DNA of 64,000 nucleotides from a virus, in IMG/VR virus record IMGVR_UViG_3300031576_000011, positions 33,307 through 97,306 of that record; one strand, given 5' to 3'. Of this stretch, positions 15,471 through 31,186 are shown piece after piece; within the stretch, counting starts at the first letter, position 1, and the number at the start of each line of letters is the position of its first letter. The notes beneath the pieces were generated by a model. The model searched no databases. It was not told the DNA's origin and saw only the letters and a list, made by a program, of their open reading frames with translations. The position numbers and the translations under genes were made by a program.

Positions 15471-16922
15471 ATGGCTGCCCGTAGGGACTATTTCATATTC
15501 CAGGCTGTCACCGAAGCAGAACTGGACGCAGGGTTCGACGGTCTCGAGTTCGCCGAGTTCAACATCAAGGCCGACGCCTTCTCCGGATCGGCCGGGTTCA
15601 TCATCGCCGGCGTGACCGTGACGCAGGCTGGGGTGCCGAACCAGACGGTCCTCGTCGGCTCGTGCCTGGCCTGGGACAACCTGGGACAGCGCGTCTTCAA
15701 GTCCACGACCGGGACGGTGTTCGACTTCTCGCCCGACGACGATCCGATCAACCCCCGGATCGCGCGGCTCTACATCAAGTTCGCGCGCGCGCTCTCCGAT
15801 CCCCGCGTCGATGGGCTGGGCGCCACGGTGAACTTCGTGCGCGCGGAGTCGTTCGTGCTCGAGCGCGACCTGGGCGCCGCGGCGGCCGTTCCGGTCGCGC
15901 CGGCGCTCCGGATCGACGAGTCGATCCTGCTCGCCAACATCACGATCCCGGCGGCGGCCGGCGTGATCAACAACGCGCAGATCACCACGACGATCCAGAC
16001 CCTGAACTCGAAGTTCAAGGTCCGCCAGCTCTTCGGTGCGACCCAGGGCCTCGACGACGCGTTCATCGCGGCGGCCTCGGCCTCGCCGCTGCCCACGACG
16101 GCGAACCGGGTGGCCCTGTTGTCGGACGTCCCGGCCGGGATCGCCGGGTTCATGGGCCAGAACAAGATCGTGACGACCGGGGTCTTGGCCATCGACATCG
16201 AGCGGTTCGATGGCGTGGACCGCACGGCCGCGAAGCGGCTGCGGCTGCGGAACCGCTCGCTCACCCTCACCGGCGGAGCCGGAGCCGTGAACGACAAGGA
16301 CTACCCGGGCGCGATCGCGCCGTCGTCGTTCCACTACATCTACGCGATTGGCGACAGCACGCTCGTCAACCCCGATGCGTCGCTGGCCTCGCTCGCCAAG
16401 GGCGCGGGATTCGCGCCATTCACGAATCCCACCCTCCCGGCCGGATACGACCTCTACCGTCTGATCGGCGTGATGCTCACGAACGGCGCCGGCACCGACA
16501 TCTTGCCGTTCCGGCAGATCAACGGCGAGGTCATCTACGACGACTCGTTCCTGGCGAACGTCTACGCCGGCGGCCTGCCGCCGGCCGCCTTCACCGCCCT
16601 CGCGCTTGGCGGATTCGTGCCCCCGATCGCCGAGCGGGCGATCGTCGGCGTGGCCATCACGTTCGCCACGTCGCAGAACGCGATCATGGAGTTCCGGTCG
16701 CTCGGCGGGCCGACCGTCGTCAACTACACGACCCTGTTCCGCGCCGGCGCGAACGACACCCTGGACGGCGCCGTGCTCGCCGCGGACTCCGACTGGGAGA
16801 AGCGCCTGCACGTGAGCCTCACGGGCGGGATCGAGTGGCGAACCGCAGCCGGGACCGTCGGGGCCCACGCCGTCCGGGTGGACGTCCGGGGATTCGTGCC
16901 AGACCTTCACTACGACGTCTAG
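15471..16922 (+). CDS. Putative tail fibre / receptor-binding protein
   Basis: Follows gpI; N-terminal attachment-type region and beta-rich C-terminus (YIYAIG, PTLPAGY..YR.IG). Confidence 0.7.
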   Translation: MAARRDYFIFQAVTEAELDAGFDGLEFAEFNIKADAFSGSAGFIIAGVTVTQAGVPNQTVLVGSCLAWDNLGQRVFKSTTGTVFDFSPDDDPINPRIARLYIKFARALSDPRVDGLGATVNFVRAESFVLERDLGAAAAVPVAPALRIDESILLANITIPAAAGVINNAQITTTIQTLNSKFKVRQLFGATQGLDDAFIAAASASPLPTTANRVALLSDVPAGIAGFMGQNKIVTTGVLAIDIERFDGVDRTAAKRLRLRNRSLTLTGGAGAVNDKDYPGAIAPSSFHYIYAIGDSTLVNPDASLASLAKGAGFAPFTNPTLPAGYDLYRLIGVMLTNGAGTDILPFRQINGEVIYDDSFLANVYAGGLPPAAFTALALGGFVPPIAERAIVGVAITFATSQNAIMEFRSLGGPTVVNYTTLFRAGANDTLDGAVLAADSDWEKRLHVSLTGGIEWRTAAGTVGAHAVRVDVRGFVPDLHYDV

Positions 16923-16996
16923 CCTCGGCAGTTGCACGGGGCGCCGCAGGTGGTAGGATCTGAACCGGGTGGCCGCAGCCGCCCGTGGAGGTCGCG

Positions 16997-17365
16997 ATGG
17001 CGTTCAACGGCGGTGGGACGGCCCTGCTCGAGACCGACGAGGCCGTCCCAGTCAGGCTCTCGAAGGTGCTCTCGGCCCTCACGGCGGGGGCGAAGGTGCT
17101 GGTGGACGAGCAGCTCACGGGCCCGGCGACGCTCTTCGACCTGGCCCCGCATGTCGCGTCGATCGCGGCCCCCAAGCTCGGGCTGCTGGTCTGCGACGGC
17201 GACGGGGCGCGGCTCAAGTTCGACGGGGCCGCCGCCTTCACCGCGAAGGCGTTCAAGGTGTTCCTGTTCGAGCTCGCGGCGACGCCGTCCGGCGTCTTCG
17301 ATCTCGAGCTCGAGATCCAGGGCGCGACCCAGCAGCGCGTCCAGTTCTTCGTCATCGGCGACTAG
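16997..17365 (+). CDS. Hypothetical protein
   Basis: RBS GGAGG before ATG. Confidence 0.6.
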   Translation: MAFNGGGTALLETDEAVPVRLSKVLSALTAGAKVLVDEQLTGPATLFDLAPHVASIAAPKLGLLVCDGDGARLKFDGAAAFTAKAFKVFLFELAATPSGVFDLELEIQGATQQRVQFFVIGD

Positions 17366-17368
17366 GAC

Positions 17369-17680
17369 ATGCGTGCGCCCTCCTACGCCCTCGCGCTCCT
17401 TTCCGTGTTCCTGGCGGTCCCAGGATGCGGGAAGGCGCTCGTCGCCAAGGACCATCCCATCGCGGTCGCGGCGCACTCCAACACGGAGGATCTCCGTGGC
17501 ATCCGCGCCGAGGTGGTTGGGTTGCTCCCGGAGGCGTCGCGTTCCACGTGGAACACTCGCCTGATCGCCTACGTCGTCCGGTCGCTCTCCATCGAGGCGG
17601 GGCTGGCCGGCGACACCGACTTCGACGTGCGCCGCGCGCTCACCGAAGAGCAGGGGAAGACGGATGCCGGAACTCGCTGA
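17369..17680 (+). CDS. Putative lipoprotein
   Basis: Hydrophobic N-terminus ending VPG-C (lipobox-like). Confidence 0.55.
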   Translation: MRAPSYALALLSVFLAVPGCGKALVAKDHPIAVAAHSNTEDLRGIRAEVVGLLPEASRSTWNTRLIAYVVRSLSIEAGLAGDTDFDVRRALTEEQGKTDAGTR

Positions 17681-17960
17681 GGTCATCGCCGACGCGAAGG
17701 ACGTGCTCCGGGACGCCCGGATCACCCCGGAGGTTCTCGACTCCGCGCTCGACATCCTCGAGCTCGCCAAGACGCTCGCCGAGAAGGACGCGCTCGACAT
17801 CACCGACCTCCTCAGCGGCGACCCGAAGGCCGACCGGGCGATCTTCGAGGCGGCGAAGGTGCAGGCCGAGATCGGGCGCTCGATCGACTGGAAGGCCGTG
17901 GGGAACCTCGCGTTCCAGGTTGCGGGCGCGCTGGCGAAGGTCGCCGCGGTGTTGGTGTAG
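17664..17960 (+). CDS. Hypothetical protein with hydrophobic C-terminus
   Basis: Overlaps upstream gene; coding-like codon usage. Confidence 0.55.
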   Translation: MPELAEVIADAKDVLRDARITPEVLDSALDILELAKTLAEKDALDITDLLSGDPKADRAIFEAAKVQAEIGRSIDWKAVGNLAFQVAGALAKVAAVLV

Positions 17961-17968
17961 GAGGCGGA

Positions 17969-18220
17969 ATGAGCGATGCGACGCCAGCGACGGCGGCCCC
18001 AGGTGCGGTGGCCCGCAAGCGCAAGCCGTTCTGGCGGAGCCACAAGGTCTGGGCGGCGGCGCTCGCGGCCGCGGTCCCGATCCTGAACCGCCTGCTCAAG
18101 ATCGAACTCTCGCCAACCGAGGTGGCCGAGGCCATGGCGCCGTTCCTGGCCCTGATCGGCGTCGAGGGGGGCGCCGACCTCGCCAAGGTCTGGCACGAGG
18201 CGAAGCGGGCCAACGCGTAG
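17969..18220 (+). CDS. Holin-like membrane protein
   Basis: KPFWRS.KVW followed by two hydrophobic segments; end of late operon. Confidence 0.55.
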   Translation: MSDATPATAAPGAVARKRKPFWRSHKVWAAALAAAVPILNRLLKIELSPTEVAEAMAPFLALIGVEGGADLAKVWHEAKRANA

Positions 18221-18327
18221 TCCACCCGTCGGACCGGGAGGCACGATGCGGTCCCTGAACGACACGGAGACCCGGCTGCTGCTCGAAGTCTCCGCGTTGG
18301 CCGCCGAAACGCGGCTGAAGGTCGAGG

Positions 18328-18603
18328 ATGCCGGATCTCGAGCCGCTGCTCCTGTCGCTGCGGGACAACATCCTGTTCCTGAAGGACAGCCTGACCGAGC
18401 GGGGCGACGCTCAGGGCAAGTTGATCGAGGGGCTGGCCGACTCGCAGGGGAAGCTCGCGGATCGCCTGCGAACGGTGGAGCTGGAGCAAGCACGCGAGTC
18501 TGGCGCCGGGTCGTCGCGCTCCTCCGCCTGGGCCGCCATCGCCACGGTGGTGGGCATCCTCCTGTCCCTGGTGCTCGGGGTGCTGGCCCTGGTCTTTAGG
18601 TAG
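18328..18603 (+). CDS. Coiled-coil protein with C-terminal TM helix
   Basis: RLRTVE followed by WAAIATVVGILLSLVLGVLALVF. Confidence 0.6.
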   Translation: MPDLEPLLLSLRDNILFLKDSLTERGDAQGKLIEGLADSQGKLADRLRTVELEQARESGAGSSRSSAWAAIATVVGILLSLVLGVLALVFR

Positions 18604-28564: not shown

Positions 28565-31186
28565 CTATCCGGTTACGGTCGTGCCATCTGGCATGGCCGC
28601 CGGCATCGTGGCGTTGATCAGTTGCTGCTTCCGCACCAGCAGCCCGTGAACGCGACGGTCGAGCTCGTGGTCAGCCACAAGGCGCTGCACGAGCACGCCG
28701 CGGTGCTGCCCGATCCTGCAAAGGCGATCTTCCGCCTGCTGGTTCAGGGCCGGGGTCCAGTCTAGGGACACGAACACGACGTGCGCCGCCTTGGTCAGTG
28801 TGAGCCCTGTCCCGGCCGCCTGGATGGTGCCGGCGAGCCCGCGGTGCGTCCCGGACTGGAAGGCCGCGGCCACCTCGGCCCGCCGCTCGTCTGGGGTGTC
28901 GCCGGTGATGGTGAGCCAGCCCGGCCGCGCGGCCACGAGGTCGATCGCGGCGCGATGGGGCGAGAACACGATCAGCGGCTCCTCCGCCTCCTCGTACGAC
29001 TCGACGAGCTCGAGGAGCGCCGGGATCTTCGCGGCCGAGAGCGCCGTGCGCGCCGCCGAGATCCGGCGCATCACGTCCTCGGGAATCCGGAGATCGACTT
29101 CCAGGGCGGCCTCCGAGAGCTCAATCCCGCAGCCCCGGAGCATCTCGAGGACGTCGTCGCACATCGTGCGCGTCGCCTTGTCGATGCCGTTCACGAGGAT
29201 GTCCTGGTACCGCTTCGGCGGCAGCTCAGGGAGCACGTCCATGCGCCGCCTGCGGAGGCAGACCTTGGCCAGCAGCCCAGGGACCTCGGGCGCAGGCATG
29301 CCCCACTCATACCCCCCGAAGTAGCCCTTGCGCGCGTCGAAGAGCCGGAGGAACCGGGGCCAGGATCCGAACGCCTCCTCGGCCAGGCTGGCGGCGTGGA
29401 GCACGTACCAGAGTTCGCTCGGGCGGTTGAGCATCGGGGTTCCAGAGAGCATCCAGGTCCGTCCCATCCGGTCGAGCACCGCTCGCGACACCGCCTCGAA
29501 CTTTCGTGTCCGCTTGGACTGCCCGTTCTTCACGAGGTGGCAGTTGTGGACCAGGAGACCGTTCACCGAGTACGACGGGTGCCCTGCAACCTCGAGATTG
29601 TGGACGACAACCTCGCCGCCGTCGTAGCCCAGCGCTTCAAGATCTCGTCGTTCGAGAATCTCGACACCGTCCAGCCGAGCGAAGCCAGGACGCGGTCCTT
29701 GCGCCGATCCTGCGCCTGGCGATCGAGGGCCCGGTGTGATCCGCCATCTGCCTCGATCGCCAGGCGCAGGGCCGGGATGGCGACGTCGATCTTGTAGTGA
29801 CACGGGGATCCCATCCGCCTGCCAGTCCGTATCACGAAGTTCGACTCGGCCATCGGACCAAGGAATCGCAAGAGCCTCCGCTCCGGTCTGGTCGGTCCGG
29901 CGCCATTCCCGCCGCGCACCGACGGCCGATGACCCATCGCACGAAGGGTCGCCGACAGCCGTTGCCTGACCGCGGCCCGCCACATCGGGTTGCGCGTCCG
30001 CATCCGCTTTGACGAGCGCGCCGCCAGCGATGGATCCCTTCGGTTGGCCGCTCGGCCGGCCGCGCTGATCCTGGCGCGCACCTTCGCACAGTAGACCTTG
30101 GCTCTGATCTCTGGTTGCCACATTCTCCACGTCGCCGAGCAGGATGTTCCGCAGAATCTGGTGGGCCACGGGCGGTCCGGATACAGCCTTCGACAGTACG
30201 CGCATCGCCGTGAGGGCTTGGGATGCATGGGTAGTCATCATCCACTGTCCAGGCACTAGGTCAAGAGCGCGGCGCCAGCCACGGCCTGTCATGAACTTGT
30301 GGTTCTGGGTGACCACGATCGTGCTATCTCCAACGGTCAGCCGCACCATGCTCCGGGCTCGGCGGACGGACAACGCGAGCACGCGTCCAGCCCCTACCGC
30401 GTTGCAGACAACCTCGCCGACCCGCACACGCTCGATCGCCTTCGGGCCGCGCGGCGTGTCCACGAGCGTCCCGGATGGAAAGCACTCGTCCGCGATGAGG
30501 ATGGTGCCATCTGGCGGCGGGCCGTACTTCTCGTGCAGCACCTCACGCCGGTGCTCCCCGGGCTTGACGACGTCTGGCAAGACGTCGTAGTTGAGTACGA
30601 CCGCGTGCCCAGGCTGCGGCCAGTGGAAGGACTTGCGCCCTCGCAGCACCTCGACCTTCAGGTCCGGGCGCCACTTCGCCGCCTCCGCCCGCCACACGCC
30701 CTTGACAGAAGCCGGACAGACCACTACACTTGGTGCGCGCTTCGGTATCGCCAGAAGCGCCTGACACGTCTTGCCCAGACCGGGCTCGTCCGCAAGCAGC
30801 GCCCGGTCCCGGCCCGAGAGCCAGGCGACGCCGGTCTTCTGGTACGGGTAGAGCGCCGCCCCGTCGTCGGCCGCGGTCGCCGCCTCGGCCCCATGCGTGA
30901 GCCGGACCGCGGTCCGGGTCCGGTTGTGCTGGGCGACCGCGTACGCCTCGAGCGCCGCCCGGAGGTCCGGCTGCACGTAGGAGACCAGCTCCCGGATCCG
31001 GAGGGCGTCCAGCACCGCCTGGGTCTGCCCGCGCTCGCAGACCTGGGCCTTGCAGACCGGGTCGTACCGGGCGCCGGCCTCCCGGCACGCCTCGCGGTAC
31101 GACTCGAAGTCCCGGCGCGGGACGTAGCCCTGTGGCTCGATCCGGGTGCGGCCGTCGACCATCAGAGAGAGGGCGATCGTGCTCAT
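28565..31186 (-). CDS. SNF2-family helicase containing an intein
   Basis: LYPYQ, LLADEPGLGKT, DE[intein]CH, LSGTPMLNRPSEL, GTGLTLTKA, QAEDRLCRIGQ. Confidence 0.92.
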   Translation of the reverse strand: MSTIALSLMVDGRTRIEPQGYVPRRDFESYREACREAGARYDPVCKAQVCERGQTQAVLDALRIRELVSYVQPDLRAALEAYAVAQHNRTRTAVRLTHGAEAATAADDGAALYPYQKTGVAWLSGRDRALLADEPGLGKTCQALLAIPKRAPSVVVCPASVKGVWRAEAAKWRPDLKVEVLRGRKSFHWPQPGHAVVLNYDVLPDVVKPGEHRREVLHEKYGPPPDGTILIADECFPSGTLVDTPRGPKAIERVRVGEVVCNAVGAGRVLALSVRRARSMVRLTVGDSTIVVTQNHKFMTGRGWRRALDLVPGQWMMTTHASQALTAMRVLSKAVSGPPVAHQILRNILLGDVENVATRDQSQGLLCEGARQDQRGRPSGQPKGSIAGGALVKADADAQPDVAGRGQATAVGDPSCDGSSAVGARREWRRTDQTGAEALAIPWSDGRVELRDTDWQADGIPVSLQDRRRHPGPAPGDRGRWRITPGPRSPGAGSAQGPRPGFARLDGVEILERRDLEALGYDGGEVVVHNLEVAGHPSYSVNGLLVHNCHLVKNGQSKRTRKFEAVSRAVLDRMGRTWMLSGTPMLNRPSELWYVLHAASLAEEAFGSWPRFLRLFDARKGYFGGYEWGMPAPEVPGLLAKVCLRRRRMDVLPELPPKRYQDILVNGIDKATRTMCDDVLEMLRGCGIELSEAALEVDLRIPEDVMRRISAARTALSAAKIPALLELVESYEEAEEPLIVFSPHRAAIDLVAARPGWLTITGDTPDERRAEVAAAFQSGTHRGLAGTIQAAGTGLTLTKAAHVVFVSLDWTPALNQQAEDRLCRIGQHRGVLVQRLVADHELDRRVHGLLVRKQQLINATMPAAMPDGTTVTG
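29543..30484 (-). mobile_element. Intein (314 aa) in the helicase Walker B motif
   Basis: Starts CFPSGTLV, block B VTQNHKF, ends VHNLEV...Y..NGLLVHN followed by Cys. Confidence 0.9.
29563..30228 (-). CDS. DUF559 / Vsr-like endonuclease nested in an alternative frame of the intein
   Basis: CAYC...FCGTSC, T.PER.L, YKIDVA....LAIEADGGSH, DRRKD..L..LGW.V.RF.N. Confidence 0.8.
   Translation of the reverse strand: MHPKPSRRCAYCRRLYPDRPWPTRFCGTSCSATWRMWQPEIRAKVYCAKVRARISAAGRAANRRDPSLAARSSKRMRTRNPMWRAAVRQRLSATLRAMGHRPSVRGGNGAGPTRPERRLLRFLGPMAESNFVIRTGRRMGSPCHYKIDVAIPALRLAIEADGGSHRALDRQAQDRRKDRVLASLGWTVSRFSNDEILKRWATTAARLSSTISRLQGTRRTR

Follow-up and report, generated by a model that had tools for sequence, protein, structure and literature searches.

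An intein in motif II of a phage helicase

The window analysed here comprises 64,000 nucleotides (nt) of a viral genome, positions 33,307 to 97,306 of the IMG/VR virus record IMGVR_UViG_3300031576_000011, and harbors on its minus strand a helicase gene with an intein, within which a second gene, for a Vsr-like nuclease, is found in another reading frame. Positions given without further specification are those of the window. The helicase gene is an open reading frame (ORF) of 873 amino acids (28565..31186, minus strand), which is assigned by the ORF list and Pfam as an SNF2-family helicase precursor with the domains SNF2-rel_dom (8.2e-20), Helicase_C (5.6e-11) and Hint_2, and for which a spliced product of 559 amino acids with DECH as motif II is predicted. 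The N-extein (30485..31186, minus strand) ends with ...GTILIADE and has a guanine plus cytosine (GC) content of 0.91 at third codon positions, the C-extein (28565..29542, minus strand) starts with CHLVKNGQSKR..., and between them lies a class-1 intein of 314 codons or 942 nt (29543..30484, minus strand). At the N-junction, where the TGC codon occupies 30484-30482, the protein sequence reads IADE/CFPSGT (slashes mark the junctions), and at the C-junction, with AAC at 29545-29543, it reads LLVHN/CHLVKN, which splits helicase motif II as DE/CH. An intein of this position and length, interrupting the DE/CH motif, had already been proposed in a first-pass annotation made by a model from the letters alone, and every coordinate was confirmed from the sequence.

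The intein contains the N-terminal cysteine (Cys1), the TxxH motif of block B (VTQNH), the C-terminal VHN and a cysteine at position +1. C1, H62, V312, H313 and N314 are invariant across 42 related inteins, and T59 is conserved in >90% of them. The insertion point is seen in intein-less relatives of the helicase, which read LIADEAHALKN (L082) and LVCDEIHCCKN (L083) where the window has LIADE/intein/CHLVKN; the C-extein is 52% and 45% identical to these two intein-less helicases, respectively. The element thus combines an N-terminal cysteine, TxxH, HN/C, the Hint fold described below and insertion into a conserved motif with intein-less alleles, as is expected of a class-1 intein. A search by blastn for a cultured relative of the helicase gene among 50,697 GenBank phages gave only a match of 125 nt to the helicase motif in Caulobacter phages.

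When the intein frame was modelled together with the 42 related inteins, residues 1-85 and 268-314 were predicted with high confidence (predicted local distance difference test, pLDDT, of 94-97 and 93-97, respectively), with values of 40-60 for residues about 90-265. The folded parts match the gp41-1, MchDnaB-1 and Mtu RecA inteins (Foldseek E 3.5e-6 to 1e-4, root mean square deviation 1.6-2.4 A). The N-terminal splicing half, intein codons 1-85, lies at 30230..30484 (minus strand), and the helicase frame alone is coding there. It is followed by a stop-free stretch of about codons 86-267 (29684..30229, minus strand), which in the intein frame amounts to an unstructured linker rich in G, A, R, P and D and without a Pfam match. 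This agrees with the earlier observation that the middle of the intein has no nuclease motif in its own frame.

A Vsr-like nuclease encoded in the +1 frame

The same DNA encodes, in the +1 frame relative to the helicase and from its own ATG at 30228, a protein of 221 amino acids (29563..30228, minus strand), which was identified by Pfam, homologues, a structural model and Foldseek. It consists of a zinc ribbon (C9, C12, C27, C31), a helical region, an RGGNG loop and a DUF559/Vsr-like core of the EDxHD type with the residues Y145, D148, E159, D161, H165, D174 and K177. The ORF matches DUF559 (PF04480) with an E-value of 2.4e-11 and 43.9 bits at a cut-off of 20.6, and full-length homologues at 40-52% identity were found in a collection of 5.8 billion proteins. 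In alignments of the nuclease family, comprising 16 and 59 sequences, 14 residues are family-invariant, and all of them are present here: G107, G109, Y145, D148, E159, D161, G162, H165, D174, K177, L181, W186, R190 and N193. Among these, E159, D161, H165 and D174 as well as D148 and K177 are invariant in the 59 sequences, and the four cysteines of the zinc ribbon fit the family consensus CxxC...RxCxxxC.

The AlphaFold model of the nuclease frame is confident over its full length (mean pLDDT 92.5). Its top matches in Foldseek are 3hrl and 3r3p, the latter being the homing endonuclease I-Bth0305I, with a probability of 1.00, a target template modelling (TM) score of 0.69-0.75 and E-values of about 1e-3; Vsr itself (1cw0/1vsr) ranks below both. 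A profile of the nuclease family compared with the PDB likewise found 3hrl (8.7e-11) and, weakly, 3r3p (0.027). The first-pass annotation had described this ORF as a complete nuclease of the DUF559/Vsr-like type with a zinc finger and its own ATG, and Pfam, alignment and model all bear this out. Two codons 5' of the ATG, the nuclease frame contains TGA TGA (30235..30240, minus strand) and is therefore closed upstream, and at its other end the nuclease stop is located seven codons short of the intein end. No second copy of the nuclease was found in the 97-kb virus record.

Signs of coding constraint in two frames at the window locus

The true dual-coding stretch covers about 40 codons (~120 nt; 29563..29683, minus strand), over which both frames are modelled with a pLDDT of 93-98. 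The intein frame encodes here the C-terminal splicing half, VEILERRD...VVVHNLEVAGHPSYSV, and the nuclease frame its last strand and C-terminal helix, GWTVSRFSNDEI...STISRLQG. Farther upstream, columns that appear conserved in the middle of the intein frame, LQ and RSGR, simply reflect the codons of the nuclease motifs YK and EVDG (E-x-D-G).

The base composition follows the same division. In the exteins, the GC content is 0.71-0.75 at helicase codon position 1 and 0.90-0.91 at position 3, whereas in the middle of the overlap it is 0.78 at helicase position 1, which is the third base of the nuclease codons, and 0.64 at position 3. Read in the nuclease frame, the third position has a GC content of 0.78-0.79 and the first and second positions have 0.61-0.64. 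This excess at the nuclease third position indicates that the nuclease protein was under constraint while the composition drifted toward that of a host with 70% GC.

Both frames are without stops across 666 nt, as had been noted from the ORF list. The synonymous codons of the nuclease were shuffled with the protein and its codon usage kept, and the stops that arose in the host frame were counted: their mean number was 3.8, and zero stops, the observed value, occurred in 0.5% of the shuffles. The open host frame therefore exceeds what is expected by chance, but for the window alone the statistic is modest (P about 0.005) because of its GC content of 70%. A programmed frameshift that would lead ribosomes from the helicase frame into that of the nuclease was also considered and rejected, as TGA TGA precedes the nuclease ATG by two codons and a slippery site is not apparent.

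Recurrence and selection in related elements

A scan of IMG/VR found 173 viral loci that encode a relative of the nuclease, and 80 of them were examined. At 77 of these 80 loci, which span GC contents of 0.28-0.70, an ORF of 550-2200 amino acids runs across the nuclease gene, the nuclease is always in the +1 frame, and the third frame is always closed. The same layout is present in 14 of 16 close relatives on contigs of bacterial and archaeal metagenome-assembled genomes (MAGs). In nearly all loci the nuclease stop falls inside intein block F/G (VYNLEVEG.HNYFANG.LVHN/C), and the N-junction mostly reads DE/CFPxGT. The related elements reside in SF2 helicases (SNF2-related and ResIII) and in at least one terminase, and are mostly inserted after the Walker-B DE, in a few helicases after DEAH. 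The terminase case is L042 (2307-4547, plus strand), where the host is the large subunit and the element follows the Walker-B IDE. Another host, the ResIII helicase of L005 (1203-4838, plus strand), carries both a canonical LAGLIDADG intein and an intein with a nested nuclease.

It could be argued that the layout in the window is an artefact of assembly or sequencing, in which two compensating indels pushed an ordinary in-frame intein endonuclease out of frame. An in-frame version of the nuclease core does exist in one intein, that of the UvrD helicase P0016 described below, and the sole contig that spans the locus, from a cave-metagenome sample, may come from the source sample itself and so would not be independent. 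Compensating indels had also been named in the first-pass annotation as a finding that would undo its reading, and they were checked. The spanning contig shows zero differences or indels, and a second, short contig from the same sample overlaps just the end. The TGA TGA lies two codons 5' of the nuclease ATG, and the DNA of the last ~40 nuclease codons also encodes the C-terminal splicing half, out of frame with the nuclease, which means that no pair of indels could merge everything into one frame. The decisive evidence is that the identical offset recurs in the 77 of 80 viral and 14 of 16 MAG loci, which are independent assemblies. An artefact is thus so improbable that it can practically be dismissed.

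The host frame was also subjected to the synonymous shuffling in the relatives. All 62 non-redundant nested viral loci that were measured have zero host-frame stops where 4-18 are expected, with a probability of zero stops of at most 0.006 for each locus; among the loci of low GC content (0.28-0.38), zero stops were seen where 10-18 are expected. In the third frame, the observed number of stops equals the expected one. Three free-standing viral copies of the nuclease, L006, L032 and L055, contain 7, 29 and 31 stops in the corresponding frame compared to 8, 29 and 29 expected. In L055 (2938-5075, plus strand; GC 0.26), the free-standing nuclease lies directly 5' of a helicase, the frame of which breaks by one base at motif II (IIIDE followed by GHHAAA); this break may have been left behind by repair at the target site or stem from an error in sequencing.

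These counts also bear on the idea that the helicase gene is functionally split, or "fractured", with both halves made separately and joined by trans-splicing, and that the open helicase frame is incidental to the high GC content. Nucleases of the same superfamily are found between split-intein halves in genes of marine phages, with their 3' end overlapping the C-terminal half (PMC2677866), among solved structures the Hint fold most resembles the split gp41-1 intein, and high-GC frames can remain open by chance. However, the absence of host-frame stops is selected and not incidental, as it is improbable in each of the 62 nested loci, including those with a GC content of 0.28-0.38. Furthermore, the N-terminal half neither ends in a stop nor is followed by a non-coding gap, and the C-terminal half lacks an evident start, so that ribosomes must read through. 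We consider a fractured gene very unlikely at this locus and favor an intein that is contiguous in the helicase frame.

Frame-specific constraint in homologues had been suggested as a check on the dual-coding idea, and it was examined by counting substitutions by helicase codon position (1/2/3) in pairs of related loci. Between L070 and L079, the N-terminal splicing half differs by 4/3/27 substitutions at positions 1/2/3 and the nuclease-only zone by 33/5/4; between L077 and L081, the respective counts are 12/3/38 and 41/11/15. In the nuclease zone of L070 and L079, 32 of the 42 changes are synonymous for the nuclease. The exteins of the compared pairs are dominated by position 3, as is the N-terminal splicing half. 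The substitutions hence follow the nuclease in the middle of the element and the helicase elsewhere. In the dual-coding ~40 codons of the relatives, the substitution rate is 2-4 fold below that of the neighbouring zones, and the changes are divided between both third positions.

One pair, L065 and L070, is 0.8% diverged in intein and nuclease, but 8-14% in the flanking exteins (compared over the intein plus flanks of 300 nt), which indicates that the element was recently passed on horizontally from one helicase allele to another, diverged one. The constant +1 offset is explained more simply by common descent of a module made up of the nuclease and the C-terminal half. A cause that lies in the genetic code was considered for the offset as well and rejected: the host stops can be avoided synonymously at this offset, but those at the other offset are mostly avoidable, too.

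Possible start signals of the nuclease

A promoter-like site, TTGACC-16 nt-GATGAT (30237..30264, minus strand), has its 3' end 9 nt before the nuclease ATG, and could yield a leaderless or near-leaderless nuclease mRNA, as judged weakly from its resemblance to the consensus. Two promoter-like sites are present in this region of the window, where 0.2 are expected. In the relatives, such sites occur at 1.13 per kb upstream of the nuclease starts and at 0.31 per kb elsewhere in the host ORFs, which is about 3.6 times as often and concerns 12 of 44 loci; since several of the loci are interrelated and the starts are uncertain, this enrichment is a hint only.

Around the element, the gene downstream of the helicase (27673-28533, minus strand) encodes a DUF932 protein (PF06067, 1.5e-8), and the other neighbouring genes tested gave no Pfam match. 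Elsewhere in the same virus record, outside the window, a canonical intein is found in a terminase-large-subunit-like ORF (L136 661-3138, plus strand; G000:C1 about 16100-18590), which reads EMEC/FRPGTL...LAGYFLAEGS...AVHN/CEFVDEAH and contains an in-frame LAGLIDADG endonuclease. Both intein architectures are thus present in one phage.

Interpretation of the element

Taken together, we interpret the locus as a contiguous intein with an overprinted homing-endonuclease gene in the motif II site (DE/CH) of a phage SNF2 helicase, a reading to which we assign a probability of about 85% and in which splicing, translation and cleavage are predicted activities. It is the folds of both frames, the recurrence of the layout, the stop shuffles and the substitution pattern that speak for an overprinted gene and not for an assembly error or a chance ORF. 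The first-pass annotation had seen in the locus a dual-coding selfish element, and this idea gains support from homology, from the models of both frames and, in the relatives, from recurrence, selection for an open host frame and the substitution patterns.

The helicase would be translated straight through as a single precursor of 873 amino acids, in which the Hint halves (intein codons 1-85 and about 268-314), tethered by a disordered linker of ~180 residues, would fold together. Splicing would then yield the 559-amino-acid helicase with DECH restored, as the intact splicing residues and the fold suggest. Read one base later, the DNA of the linker represents the true coding frame of the zinc-ribbon and Vsr-like (DUF559/EDxHD-type) nuclease, which is probably made separately from its own ATG, perhaps via an internal promoter and a near-leaderless mRNA. 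By analogy with I-Bth0305I, the nuclease is expected to cut intein-less helicase alleles during co-infection, and repair would copy intein and nuclease jointly; the low divergence of the element between L065 and L070 lends indirect support to such cleavage. In this reading, selection retains three things, namely the nuclease protein, a stop-free helicase frame and both proteins in the last ~40 codons. For the helicase frame to stay open, the nuclease gives up nothing but some freedom among synonymous codons, since it suffices to avoid a T-ending codon before AAx, AGx or GAx.

Several points weigh against the interpretation as an overprinted, functional nuclease gene. At 70% GC, alternative frames stay open fairly easily, and the ordinary high-GC DUF559 genes L120, L123 and L133 have open second frames as well. 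The closest relatives found for the intein in the window are distant ones, with a best nuclease identity of 40-54%, and it is therefore the family, rather than this lineage, for which purifying selection is shown. The promoter-like site is a consensus match only, no Shine-Dalgarno sequence is present upstream of the nuclease start in the window, and such a motif was found in just 3 of 17 loci. Finally, the profile match to I-Bth0305I is weak, and the Foldseek E-values are merely about 1e-3.

Some of these points would also fit a decaying relic, that is, an effective mini-intein with a long linker, the nested ORF of which has ceased to be translated or to act in this phage. Neither a Shine-Dalgarno sequence nor close relatives with ongoing constraint in this lineage were found, and decay does occur in the family: in L060 (3001-3684, plus strand), the nuclease has an in-frame stop soon after the start of its zinc ribbon, with the host frame open, and this locus is a possible example of nuclease decay. 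In the window, however, the frame of 221 codons is unbroken between its ATG and its stop, none of the 14 invariant residues has been lost, and the nuclease model is confident throughout. The higher GC content at the nuclease third position than at the first and second ones, too, implies constraint on the protein. Hence a relic is an unlikely explanation, and an overprinted gene that still specifies a nuclease remains the one that we prefer.

A further and more doubtful proposal goes beyond the single locus. The +1-frame nuclease and the C-terminal splicing half might be one inherited, co-encoded module, and overprinting might be the stable, selected form of a very large family of phage inteins at Walker-B (DE) sites. 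As the last ~40 codons are shared, any deletion of the nuclease gene would then abolish splicing and with it the helicase. If this tentative idea were true, the overlap would act as a linkage or "addiction" device that slows down endonuclease loss and mini-intein formation in the homing cycle, and it would explain why the overprinted layout dominates over split and in-frame forms of the same nuclease.

The layout is easily overlooked. Since gene callers accept a single frame at any one place, nested nucleases are missed in annotation, and their inteins are mistaken for decaying ones or for mini-inteins. That overprinting is the rule for one nuclease family, relatives of which are found on at least 170 viral contigs, with selection measurable on both frames, alters the view of how rare such arrangements are. 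The element also offers a clear example from nature in which one piece of DNA of 120 nt specifies structured segments of two proteins. Moreover, the split, overprinted and in-frame forms of one nuclease family make models of endonuclease entry and of the origin of split inteins directly testable, and splicing halves that tolerate a linker of ~180 residues, together with new nucleases that target Walker-B sites, may serve protein and genome engineering.

Comparison with known systems

The nuclease itself is comparable to I-Bth0305I (Taylor et al., 2011, PMC3239194; PDB 3R3P), the prototype of the EDxHD homing endonucleases, which is encoded in a group I intron of recA. Both I-Bth0305I and the DUF559 protein 3HRL share the Vsr-like catalytic fold (TM 0.69-0.75) and the E...D...H...D pattern, represented here by E159, D161, H165 and D174. 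I-Bth0305I similarly has an N-terminal DNA-binding part and a C-terminal nuclease and resides in a mobile intervening sequence. It differs in that the sequence similarity is weak (profile E 0.027) and that the N-terminal part is here made up of a zinc ribbon and helices.

Fractured genes with split inteins are the second point of comparison. In gp41, IMPDH, DnaE, NrdA/J, ligase and terminase genes, Dassa et al. (2009, PMC2677866) described split-intein halves with a free-standing gene for a Vsr-like or GIY-YIG endonuclease between them. The N-terminal half is closed there by a stop, a non-coding stretch of 27-51 nt comes next, and the nuclease gene shares 6-69 bp with the C-terminal half. Like these, the element in the window resides in a phage gene of DNA metabolism, has a Vsr-like nuclease at the place where the endonuclease domain of an intein normally sits, and has a nuclease gene that overlaps the C-terminal intein half with its 3' end (~120 nt here) and may, as in those genes, have expression signals of its own. 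The host gene is different, as it is motif II of an SF2 helicase that is interrupted. The definition of a fractured gene by a stop and a gap does not apply, because the host frame is continuous through the nuclease, and the same holds for the 77 of 80 viral loci.

An open host frame with an out-of-frame endonuclease, in that case of the HNH type, is also described for the ShiLan insertion in phage methylases, which, as far as the accessible part of PMC11855218 goes, is not an intein by sequence and involves another nuclease family and another host gene. Closest in architecture are the non-canonical inteins reported by the Gogarten lab. Gosselin, Arsenault and Gogarten (bioRxiv 10.1101/2025.01.02.630785) described actinobacteriophage inteins with an endonuclease VII-like gene in "frame 3" as well as LAGLIDADG and Vsr-like genes in antisense orientation, and stated that Vsr-like enzymes are otherwise known only with split inteins. 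A LAGLIDADG gene in the +2 frame of a cyanobacterial dnaX intein was reported by Phillips, DeSimone and Gogarten (bioRxiv 10.64898/2026.09.14.751524), who called the layout a rarity, and an out-of-frame intein endonuclease is attributed to Gorbalenya 1998, as cited in these preprints. The element in the window agrees with the Gogarten-lab inteins in its contiguous intein ORF, in a middle that is unstructured in frame and in a complete endonuclease ORF that lies between the splicing blocks but is read in another frame. That the endonuclease frame is under purifying selection is seen here in the relatives, with evidence from composition for the lineage of the window itself, and the origin proposed for those inteins, the invasion of a mini-intein by a free-standing endonuclease gene, would be applicable as well. 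The differences are that the Vsr-like/DUF559 gene lies here on the same strand in the +1 frame and overlaps the C-terminal splicing half by ~40 codons, that the host site is the Walker B of a helicase or terminase, and that the layout is not "rare" but the usual one, which at least 91 of the 96 close relatives studied here have. A same-strand Vsr-like out-of-frame intein endonuclease was not found in the literature on non-canonical inteins and fractured genes that was compared.

The nuclease family itself is found split (PMC2677866), in frame, overprinted and, at one locus, apparently fused to the N-terminal intein half. The in-frame state is represented by P0016, a UvrD helicase of 1995 amino acids with two inteins, the first of which has an in-frame LAGLIDADG endonuclease; the second one (LIDE/CFTGDT...VHN/CQ, residues about 1120-1450) contains a DUF559 core in frame and lacks the zinc ribbon. 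In L080 (2290-4550, plus strand; IMGVR_UViG_3300010351_001913), the N-extein and the N-terminal half share the frame of the nuclease over 397 codons, and the C-terminal half and C-extein are one base off, which reflects either a fused or split form of the element or an indel introduced in assembly. Both states fit the indel-transition models of the Gogarten-lab papers. The first-pass annotation had regarded the element as a possible intermediate between in-frame and split forms; that other states exist is in line with this notion, but overprinting is the prevailing form, maintained by selection, rather than a transitory stage. Out-of-frame intein endonucleases as such are thus already known, and what is new in the element described here is the combination of a same-strand Vsr-like nuclease in the +1 frame, the tail of which is co-encoded with a splicing half, with a layout that is the norm of its family.

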